From a virus (Duplodnaviria; Heunggongvirae; Uroviricota; Caudoviricetes): a stretch of 10,498 nt of DNA. Below the pieces are notes generated by a model, which saw only the letters and a program-made list of their open reading frames with translations, did not search any database and was not told the origin of the DNA. The position numbers were made by a program, and so were the translations under genes. The stretch is taken from IMG/VR virus record IMGVR_UViG_2534682139_000014, positions 1-10,498 of that record. The stretch is one strand, 5' to 3'. Below are positions 3,717-7,192 of the stretch, piece by piece (the stretch's first letter is position 1; each line of letters begins with the position of its first letter).

Positions 3717-4991
3717 TCAGCTGATACTGATCCCTGCCGTGGATTTTTTCATGACCACAACCAGTAAATCACTGATGTACGTTGTCGGCGTCCAGTTGTT
3801 CGCACCGGCCGACGACACATTAAACGTCAGGGTGACATGACCCCGCCCTGCCGGCATATCTATCACCGATGAGAACACCCGGCTGACATCCGTTGCCGGT
3901 TCATGGAAAATCTCAACCCCGTTCTTCAGCACCTGCAGCTTACAGGTGGAATACCAGTACGACTGCTGATTCGGGCTGTTGAAATTCTGGTGTTTCGTCC
4001 CGCGAAACAGCACCGGGGGAATGATAATCTGCCGGTCGAAGCCCTGGTCATCGTAAACTGTGACGGTTACCGTCCCGCTGGCATAACTGTTATTCCGGGG
4101 AAAGGCTTTCCCCACCGTCTTCACCAGGTCGCCTTCAATCTGGTTTGCAGACAGTTTCCCTCTGATGACACAGTTCTCGTTAATGGTGACATTATTGAGC
4201 GTGCCGGTATTCGCGGTAATTGCTCCGCTGATATCCGCGTTCCTGGCTGTCAGCTTCCCTTCCGGCGTCAGGGAAAACGTCGGGGGGTTGCCGGATGACG
4301 TGATACTCGCCGCAAACAGCCGCTTCAGGAACACATCGTTCATGAACAACTGATTCCCCTGCGCCACAAATAACGGCGTGGTGTTGCCGTCCTCCGGGTT
4401 AATCATCGCAATACGGTCAGCCAGCAGCAGTATGTTGCTCAGGGGCTGGCCATCAGTATCCTCAATCCCCGCTCCAATACCGGCAACATAGGGTATGCCA
4501 TTTTTTGTTTTCTGTACCTTCAGCATGTAAAGTGCAGCAAGGTCATCATTTGTGTCCTTCTGCACGCGCTGTATCTGCTGTATGGTGGCGCTCTGGTCCT
4601 CCAGCGTTTTACTGACCGTCTGTGTGATTTCATTGCGGGTTTCGGTGATGGAGGTCTTCATCTCCGCCATCTCATCCGCAAGCTGGCTGTTGTCTATCAG
4701 CTCCCACAGCCCCTGAGCCAGATGCAGTTTTCCTATTTTTTCCCGAAACAGCCCCAGATACCCTTCTGCATCATTGCTGGCCCGGCCACTGGCTTCCACA
4801 AAAGCAGATTTCCCCACCAGGTTGACGCTGCGCACGTAAAACCAGAAATCCTTCCCGGGCTTAATGTGCGGGCCGGATACACTCCACTGACTGCCGGTCC
4901 CCAGATAACGGGCAGAGGTTTCCACCTGAGATGTGTCTGCGATTTTTGTCTCCGAAAACCAGAACTCAAACTGTACCGTCGGGTCATACAC
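3717..4991 (-). CDS. J: Host specificity / tail tip protein J, C-terminal fragment (frame-shifted relative to the N-terminal fragment)
   Basis: Translation [14 protein letters not shown]... matches the lambda J C-terminal third as recalled. The frame is open upstream of the listed start and reads [15 protein letters not shown], continuing the J sequence in a different frame from the 5012..7192 ORF. Confidence 0.8.
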
Positions 4992-5011
4992 CGCAAGACG
5001 CGGGACCGCTG

Positions 5012-7192
5012 TTATCTGAAAATGCCCGGTGTCAGCTCAATCGTGGCGGGTACCGCAGGTGCATTAATCCTGAACGTGGTGGTGGCCGGTTCCCCCTGCT
5101 GGCCATAACTGTTAATTGCCCTGACTGTCAGGGTGTATTCCCCGAGCGGCAGACCACTGGAACGATGCTCTGTATCCGCGGTGATGGCGGTGGTCACCAG
5201 ACGGCTGCCTTCTCCGCTTCCGCTGGTCAGTCGCAGACTGAAGCGCACCCCCTTCACCACCCGCGGCGTGTCCCATTTCGCCTGTGCCAGATACTGGCCG
5301 TCAGCTGCGCTCACCTCCACCGTCAGGTGCTGCACTGCCGGAGGGATGACGCTGTTCAGGGTGCCTGACTGCGGCTCAAAGCTGGCCCCGTTATCCACGA
5401 TGGCTTCCTTTTCCGGTACGTGCTGCACCGCCGTGATGGCAAAGGTGCCGTCCGTGTTTTCCCGGATGGAGACACAGCGGAACAGGCGACGACGCAGTGA
5501 CGGCAGGGAGAGTCCCCATACACCGTATGTCGCCACACCATCAGGCAGGGTGCTGACCTGTATCCGGTCCGGCGCGGGGTGTGCAGTGATGGCCACGCTC
5601 ACCGGCTTACCGCTGCCGTTAATCAGGTTCACCGTGGCGGCACCTGTCTCCGGCAGGGTCACCTCACGGTCCAGTGTCAGGGTGCGGCTGGCGGCATCGA
5701 TGGACAGGATACGTCCGCCGGTCATGGTCCCGGCATAGTCGTTATCACAGATTTCAATAATGTCACCGGGTGTGTGCCGCAGCCCCTGTGACCCGAGCGT
5801 GAAATCCACCGTCTGCGTTTCCAGCAGTCCGGTCTTTATCACCCACAGCCCGGCACGGTGGGCCTGACCGCGACTGGTGCAACCGAACGCATCCATCTTC
5901 AGCAGGTTGCGCCCGTAGCGCAGTATGGCTTCCGGGTCTTCCACCAGTTCCGTGGAGGTCTGCCAGCCGTTCTGCGGGTCGGTGTAATTCACCTCCACCG
6001 CCGTGTGGCGGTCCTTCAGGGCGCTGAAGCTGTAGCGAAACCCCACGCCGTTATCATCCACCACCACATCGCTGTTGGTGTACGGCCACACCACATCCGA
6101 CGGGCGGTCCTGAACGAACGTCAGCGTCTGGCCGCTCCATACCGGCATACAGCGCATCGCCGAGCAGAAATCACTGAGAACGTCCCACGCCTTACGCTGT
6201 TGTGACAGGTACGCATTAAAGGTCATCCGCGGCTCTGTGCCCCCGAAACCATCCGGGACCGTCTGGTCGCAGTACTGCGCAATGGCATACAGCGCCCATT
6301 TGTCCACGTCTGCCGCCCCCAGACGTTTTCCCATGCCGTAGCGCGAGTGAGTCAGCATGTCCCACAGGCACCAGGCCGGGTTGTTGCTGTATGCCGGTTT
6401 CAGGCTGCCGTCCCTGATGCCGCTGTACGTGCGTTTTTCCGGGTCATAGTTTGACGGTACCTGGATGATGCGACCGCGGATATGGTAGTTCACCGTCATC
6501 TGCTGACCGCCAAACTGCTCCGCATCCACCTGCAACCCCACAATCGCCGTGTTCGGGTAGCACTGTTTCACATCGATGATTTCGGTGTATGACGACCAGA
6601 GCGTCTTATTCTGCAGCTGGTCCGGGGTGCTGTCCGCTGTCTCCCGGACCATCCGGATGTTAAAGGGCCGCTCAGGCAGATTATCCAGAATCACCGACGC
6701 CAGAAACTGCGAGGTGGTCTTGCCGTTAATGGTGACATCCTTTTCCGTCACCCAGTTACCGTTACGCTGTAACTGAATCAGCAGGCGGACGGATGTCGGG
6801 TTTCGGTCACCCTTTGACGTGGTCTGCACCAGTGACTGCACCCCGAAGGTGACCCGCAGGCGGTCAATGTTCGCGGATGTAATGGTGCGCGTCACCGGCT
6901 TTGCCTTCGTCACTTCCACGCCCAGTGCGGTTTCCGCCCCGGAGGACTCAAAGCCTTCAGGTGGTGTCTGCTCCTGCTCCCCGGCGCGCCAGACCGCGGT
7001 CACACCGTGTATCACAGGATTGCCGTCCGTGTCCGTCAGCGGGGTTTTGTTCACCAGGATACTCTGCAGCCCCTTCACCGGGCCTTCAATCGGCCCTTCA
7101 CCAATGGCATCAATCACGCTCATCATCTGCGTGGACTTAAGATTGTCCTTTGCCTCTACCGGCGTGTGCGCCTTGCCGCCACCTTTACCCAC
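5012..7192 (-). CDS. J: Host specificity / tail tip protein J, N-terminal fragment (726 aa), terminated prematurely by a 1-nt frameshift
   Basis: GTG start at 7192 with [35 protein letters not shown]... collinear with lambda J as recalled; ends ...[10 protein letters not shown] at 5012-5014, where intact J proteins continue. Confidence 0.85.

Follow-up and report, generated by a model that had tools for sequence, protein, structure and literature searches.

The window analysed here is a stretch of 10,498 nucleotides (nt) from a tailed-phage record (IMGVR_UViG_2534682139_000014), and it corresponds to the last 10.5 kilobases (kb) of the 60.7-kb contig AEZS02000009.1 in the draft genome of Escherichia coli 3.2608 (GCA_000215205.2). 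It covers part of the tail module of a lambda-type prophage, in which gene J is split into two open reading frames (ORFs) by the loss of a single base. The product of J in lambda-type phages is a trimer that forms the tail tip and the central fibre and binds the receptor. We lean towards reading the deletion as a genuine, very recent and strain-private inactivating mutation, that is, as the early stage of an ordinary prophage pseudogene.

The split J gene and its missing base

The J gene of the window lies on the minus strand and is composed of an N-terminal ORF of 726 amino acids (aa), ending in TPGIFR-TAA, and a C-terminal ORF of 424 aa in the next frame. This second frame is open from position 5036, upstream of the GTG codon at 4991 that is its first possible start, and direct reading of the sequence upstream of the GTG revealed no Shine-Dalgarno-like motif. 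The two frames are therefore arranged as the original prediction had described them, instead of the one uninterrupted ORF of about 1,130-1,165 codons expected of a J gene. Most of the 120 listed J homologues, as well as the closest loci, are 1,157-1,163 aa long; those that are shorter carry the label partial in their source records. In the closest complete genomes (UTAK-10 and O103 WL1467), which are 99.9% identical to the window over its whole length, J is a single ORF of 3,477 nt encoding 1,158 aa (WP_151296752.1). Judged from these sequence comparisons, the two-ORF pattern truly sets the window apart from hundreds of relatives and is not the product of chance.

Alignment with the J genes of related prophages had been proposed as a check, and the global alignment of the window J with the intact 3,477-nt gene of UTAK-10 and O103 WL1467 contains exactly one gap, of 1 nt. 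Compared directly, the site reads GGGCTATTTTCAG in the intact genes and GGGCATTTTCAG in the window. The first T of the Tyr724 codon has been lost; on the coding strand it would stand between C (+5024) and A (+5023). The gene thus shows the disruption relative to intact orthologues that marks a pseudogene, namely the 1-nt gap and a premature stop three codons later. A single base inserted anywhere in 5015-5036 would restore the frame, and only an insertion at 5023/5024 gives the GYFQIT of the family, as in lambda. The base had been placed earlier in a tttc/cag segment at about 5015-5020, which has to be corrected by 4-8 nt. Likewise, one added base does restore a continuous protein, as predicted, and its exact size is 1,158 aa instead of about 1,150 aa; the repaired protein reads GYFQITAV like lambda gpJ. 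As a separate observation, J of E. coli 2011C-4315 has a mosaic patch in the first immunoglobulin (Ig) domain, just upstream of this position, where nt 2100-2157 (window 5036-5093) carry 11 substitutions in 58 nt relative to both the window and UTAK-10; the deletion site itself is intact in that strain.

The gap as placed by the aligner would correspond to a slip from T5 to T4, and an assembly error at a short homopolymer was one of the explanations first offered for the split. Direct inspection (CTATTTT versus CATTTT) rules this candidate out. The lost T sits outside any run, and the T4 run at 5019-5022 has the same length in the window and in the intact genes, so the event was not a homopolymer slip. 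We also listed every difference between 16.8 kb of the 3.2608 contig and UTAK-10; no other indel was found, and none of the 75 runs of five or more bases differs in length.

The frame-repaired J is similar to lambda gpJ over its full length. In a phmmer search against PDB chains it matched 8iyk_J with an E value of 0 and 1,699 bits, with query residues 1-834 and 864-1157 aligned; the C-terminal region is less similar to lambda than the N-terminal 834 residues (299 versus 1,406 bits). Six Pfam families, all above their gathering cut-offs, were identified in the expected order and are divided evenly between the ORFs, with FNIII-A_GpJ, Phage-tail_3 and Ig_J in the first and Ig_J_second, Phage_Tail_Tip and Ig_GpJ_C in the second. 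The break falls about 11 residues inside the second Ig-like domain, and the domain content of the two ORFs matches a gpJ divided there. The position of the gene agrees as well, J being located after M, L, K and I and before lom and stf according to the gene calls on the contig and the Prokaryotic Genome Annotation Pipeline (PGAP) annotation of 99.9% identical loci, and the order M-L-K-I-J-lom-stf-tfa is shared with lambda. Overall, the window J and lambda gpJ (PDB 8iyk/8xcg) have in common the end-to-end alignment, the six-domain order and the GYFQIT motif at the break. They differ in that the frame of the window J is broken at Tyr724 (Tyr726 in lambda) and in that two conserved hub residues are replaced (W260R and P283S). 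The prediction of a lambda-type J broken by a 1-nt deletion is borne out by the single gap against the intact gene.

If the deletion is real, the loss of one T in the Tyr724 codon would shift the frame and lead to a stop three codons later. What remains would be a 726-aa fragment that keeps the hub domains together with the first Ig domain and is missing the central fibre, the C-terminal receptor-binding domain and the greater part of the second Ig domain. The 424-aa frame downstream of it has only a GTG start and no ribosome-binding site, and its product would probably be scarce or absent. Judging by lambda J, this prophage copy would then be without a functional tail tip of its own, and the defect may be masked by the J proteins of sister prophages or repaired by recombination with them.

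Distribution of the deletion and private substitutions

A probe of 91 nt centred on the site was used to look for the deleted allele, with a threshold of 99% identity. At this threshold the allele was found in none of 3,170 matching places in 1,285 of the 5,426 complete E. coli genomes (1,291 records), and every top match of the probe among the E. coli genomes has the extra base; 58 matching phage records gave the same result on both counts. GCA_000215205.2 is the only assembly with a record of the 726-aa product, which is entered there as the 'hypothetical protein' EIH57242.1. An exact look-up of the frame-repaired 1,158-aa protein with the 3.2608 substitutions, in a collection of 15 billion proteins, gave no match. 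Gene calls on at least 24 other contigs include the 424-aa ORF, and these were considered as other carriers of a split J and rejected as annotation artefacts at contig edges. Nine such contigs were read, each of 2-2.7 kb and beginning inside J; the site is the intact CTATTTT in eight of them, and the first base of the ninth lies downstream of the site. The 424-aa entries in these draft assemblies (at least 24) are named 'DUF1983 domain-containing protein' and are identical to the C-terminal ORF of the window. Across the genomes and phage records compared, the deletion is private to one draft assembly.

Besides the deletion, the window J differs from the UTAK-10 and O103 WL1467 gene by two non-synonymous substitutions and one synonymous substitution (table 1). 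The two non-synonymous changes replace conserved residues: residue 260 is Trp in all 133 homologues, residue 283 is Pro in 130 of the 133, and lambda gpJ has both. Neither W260R nor P283S was present in the best match of each of 2,131 records (6,439 matching places). Outside J, one substitution in M and one in hyaD are private, and the hyaD base, which lies in single-copy chromosomal DNA, occurs in 0 of 5,418 matching complete E. coli genomes. There are four private substitutions in all: the two in J are both non-synonymous at conserved residues and the two outside J are both synonymous. This contrast is suggestive of a relaxed constraint in J but not in its neighbours, although on four substitutions it is not significant. 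An excess of private changes in J was also considered and dropped, because the singletons in M and hyaD are private too and the two J substitutions therefore represent no excess over the local density of private variants (about 2.4e-4). The three clustered differences in gene L, shared with other records, have the appearance of a short patch that lambdoid prophages exchanged by recombination.

Mutation, artefact or recoding

The original prediction offered either a real inactivation or a sequencing or assembly error. Both are still live explanations, and it is the homopolymer model of the error that has fallen. A genuine mutation agrees with the context of the site, since the lost base outside a homopolymer and the absence of any miscounted run mean that the classic context of indel errors is lacking. 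It also agrees with the substitutions, as non-synonymous changes in J and synonymous ones elsewhere form the pattern expected of real mutations under selection, with J released from constraint. The other explanation is that the strain has an intact J and that a base was dropped from the draft consensus (AEZS02000009.1), in a region of which several prophages carry copies, and we regard this as a serious possibility, somewhat short of an even chance. Several observations speak for it and weigh against a real mutation. The deletion is carried by a single draft assembly, and the synonymous/non-synonymous contrast comprises four substitutions only. J lies in DNA that is repeated about eight times in related genomes, where a draft consensus is least reliable, and the contig breaks 3.3 kb upstream, inside the neighbouring and likewise repeated tape-measure gene, a sign that the assembler had difficulty here. 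The five changes in 16.8 kb that are seen in no other genome, including the hyaD site, could mean a consensus error rate near 3e-4. By exact look-up, no independent assembly was found with the same private alleles, split or repaired. Frameshifted J calls that are most likely assembly noise exist in other records; for instance, the 'complete' genome of E. coli O121:H19 16-9255 (NZ_CP022407.1) has J, K and nleC all frameshifted, most likely through uncorrected indel errors. The annotation of that genome divides the J homologue into four or five pieces, each frameshifted or partial. Against an artefact stands the nature of the lost base, a lone T outside any run in 16.8 kb without a miscounted homopolymer. 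In addition, random errors would make both private substitutions outside J synonymous in only about 1 of 16 cases. A consensus mixing paralogues was considered as the source of W260R and P283S and rejected: R260 and S283 occur in 0 of the 133 homologues and in no best match of the 2,131 records, and they thus come from no known paralogue.

It is very improbable, in our judgement, that the split J is a functional arrangement. In one version, tRNA-Phe would slip back by one base (-1), from UUC to UUU, in ribosomes pausing at the rare AGA codon that precedes UAA, and small amounts of full-length J(Y724I) would result. In the other, termination-reinitiation at GTG 4991 would give two fragments that assemble non-covalently. 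The sequence U-UUC-AGA-UAA does allow the tRNA in the P site to re-pair in the -1 frame, the AGA codon is rare, and the slip would follow the mechanism of hungry-codon frameshifting. Three copies of J are needed per lambda virion, and a low level of full-length J could suffice for this. PDB also holds chains of the C-terminal part of gpJ only (420 and 428 residues, one named 'gpJ 713'), which match query residues 861-1158 from chain positions of about 124 and about 132; these chains would begin near residue 713, which suggests that the C-terminal part can exist alone. However, the junction CCG GGC AUU UUC AGA UAA contains no slippery heptamer of the form X-XXY-YYZ and allows only the re-pairing of a single tRNA. 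The RNA of the downstream 100 nt has a minimum free energy of -22.9 kcal/mol against a mean of -25.4 for shuffled sequences (z = +0.75), and 154 of 200 shuffles fold as well. The two tRNA-Arg genes of the related UTAK-10 prophage would relieve AGA hunger, if they read AGA/AGG. As for reinitiation, the GTG is without a ribosome-binding site, and a protein started there would lack one strand of the second Ig domain. The original prediction had allowed for intact phages with the same two-ORF J, but none of the 3,170 genomic places and none of the 58 phage records has this form, and selection has thus not favoured it. A programmed frameshift was accordingly rejected for want of heptamer, structure and conservation. 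The programmed -1 frameshift of lambda G/GT resembles the J break as a change of frame within a lambdoid tail module. Its slippery sequence is conserved and its two-frame layout is maintained throughout the tailed phages, whereas the J break has no slippery sequence and no conserved two-frame layout and is present in one assembly only. We give just as little credence to a broken J that is still leaky, either because the -1 slip gives J(Y724I) and some infectious tails or because a hub-only tip is used and host range is determined by the intact side tail fibres. The reading that we favour remains that of a real and recent inactivation.

Prophage context and consequences

In E. coli 3.2608 the prophage is inserted between yccA and tRNA-Ser/hyaA. 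The window and the contig end together (position 10498) inside the tape-measure gene, 708 nt before its stop; beyond the other end of the window lie the tRNA-Ser and then hyaABCDEF. The head, lysis and regulatory parts of the prophage are on other contigs, outside the window. All tail genes of the window other than J translate without interruption, and those upstream of it (7441..10498) differ from UTAK-10 by synonymous changes only. The same prophage in UTAK-10 is a full element of about 48 kb, from integrase to tail fibres, in which no structural gene is flagged as a pseudogene. It also has a cluster of tRNA-Ile, tRNA-Arg and tRNA-Arg genes upstream of the lysis genes (19568-19817 of its stretch), a part whose counterpart in 3.2608 lies outside the window. 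The prophages of UTAK-10 and O103 WL1467 share with that of 3.2608 the insertion site by tRNA-Ser/hyaA, a TccP2-like effector gene and an EspV remnant. The effector gene of the window is intact and is located as cargo at the prophage end; its 250-aa product is identical to WP_012817749.1 of UTAK-10. The EspV remnant sits between the effector gene and the tRNA-Ser.

Table 1. Features of the window and sequence differences from related genomes (window positions unless stated otherwise)
Feature	Position	Strand	Remarks
EspV remnant	1-183	+	60-aa ORF; in relatives called by PGAP an internal fragment of secretion protein EspV (pseudogene)
Type III effector gene	499-1251	+	250 aa, EspF-repeat (TccP2/EspFu-like)
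Effector gene repeats	754-1230		3.4 copies of a 141-nt (47-aa) proline-rich unit
Tail-fibre C-terminal/assembly protein	1645-1376	-	Intact, identical to UTAK-10
Side tail fibre	2960-1647	-	Intact, identical to UTAK-10
lom	3648-3025	-	Intact, identical to UTAK-10
J C-terminal ORF	3717..4991	-	Ig_J_second (profile positions 24-103 only), Phage_Tail_Tip, Ig_GpJ_C receptor-binding domain
J substitution	4041		Synonymous; common to 209 records
Premature stop TAA from the frameshift	5012..5014	-	Read from the sequence
J N-terminal ORF	5012..7192	-	FNIII-A_GpJ, Phage-tail_3, Ig_J; GIFR-TAA 3 codons past the deletion
J deletion, one T lost from TAT (Tyr724)	5023..5024	-	Private; intact GGC TAT TTT CAG (G Y F Q), window GGC ATT TTC AGA TAA
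J substitution P283S	6346	-	Private
J substitution W260R	6415	-	TGG>AGG; private
I	8022-7441	-	Intact
K	8762-8019	-	Intact
L	9465-8767	-	Intact
L substitutions	9220, 9238, 9240		Synonymous; common to 31 records including O103:H2 12009
M	9794-9465	-	Intact
M substitution	9678		Synonymous; private
Tape measure, C-terminal part	10498-9791	-	Cut by the contig end
hyaD codon 7 (V7V, GTG>GTA)	14768 of the contig stretch, outside the window		Synonymous; private

A decaying, cryptic prophage that cannot make infectious particles had been offered as one of the two original explanations. This is too strong and goes beyond the evidence, because the other tail genes of the window are unbroken, the UTAK-10 prophage has no flagged structural defects and there is a precedent for complementation in enterohaemorrhagic E. 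coli (EHEC); the remainder of the 3.2608 prophage is unseen. Close relatives carry about eight J paralogues, which could complement or repair the defect. In EHEC O157 Sakai, defective lambdoid prophages are released and transferred, most likely via complementation by or recombination with sister prophages (Asadulghani et al. 2009, PMC2669165). The Sakai prophages resemble the present case in the presence of several near-identical lambdoid prophages per genome, in individual copies with frameshifts in morphogenetic genes and in effector genes carried as cargo. They differ in that their defects were checked on a finished genome and their activity was tested experimentally, whereas the 3.2608 prophage is known from the end of one draft contig.

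Draft genomes are well known to contain prophage structural genes with frameshifts, and such cases are common; the present one is ordinary whichever explanation holds. The split J bears on no open question about tail-tip proteins or recoding and is of little importance outside annotation. As an artefact, it would illustrate how draft assemblies turn one J gene into split 'hypothetical protein' and 'DUF1983' entries. If it is real, the prophage carrying a TccP2-like effector in one attaching-and-effacing-type E. coli strain would be unable to make its own tail tip, and the chance that the effector gene spreads without the help of sister prophages would be slightly lower.

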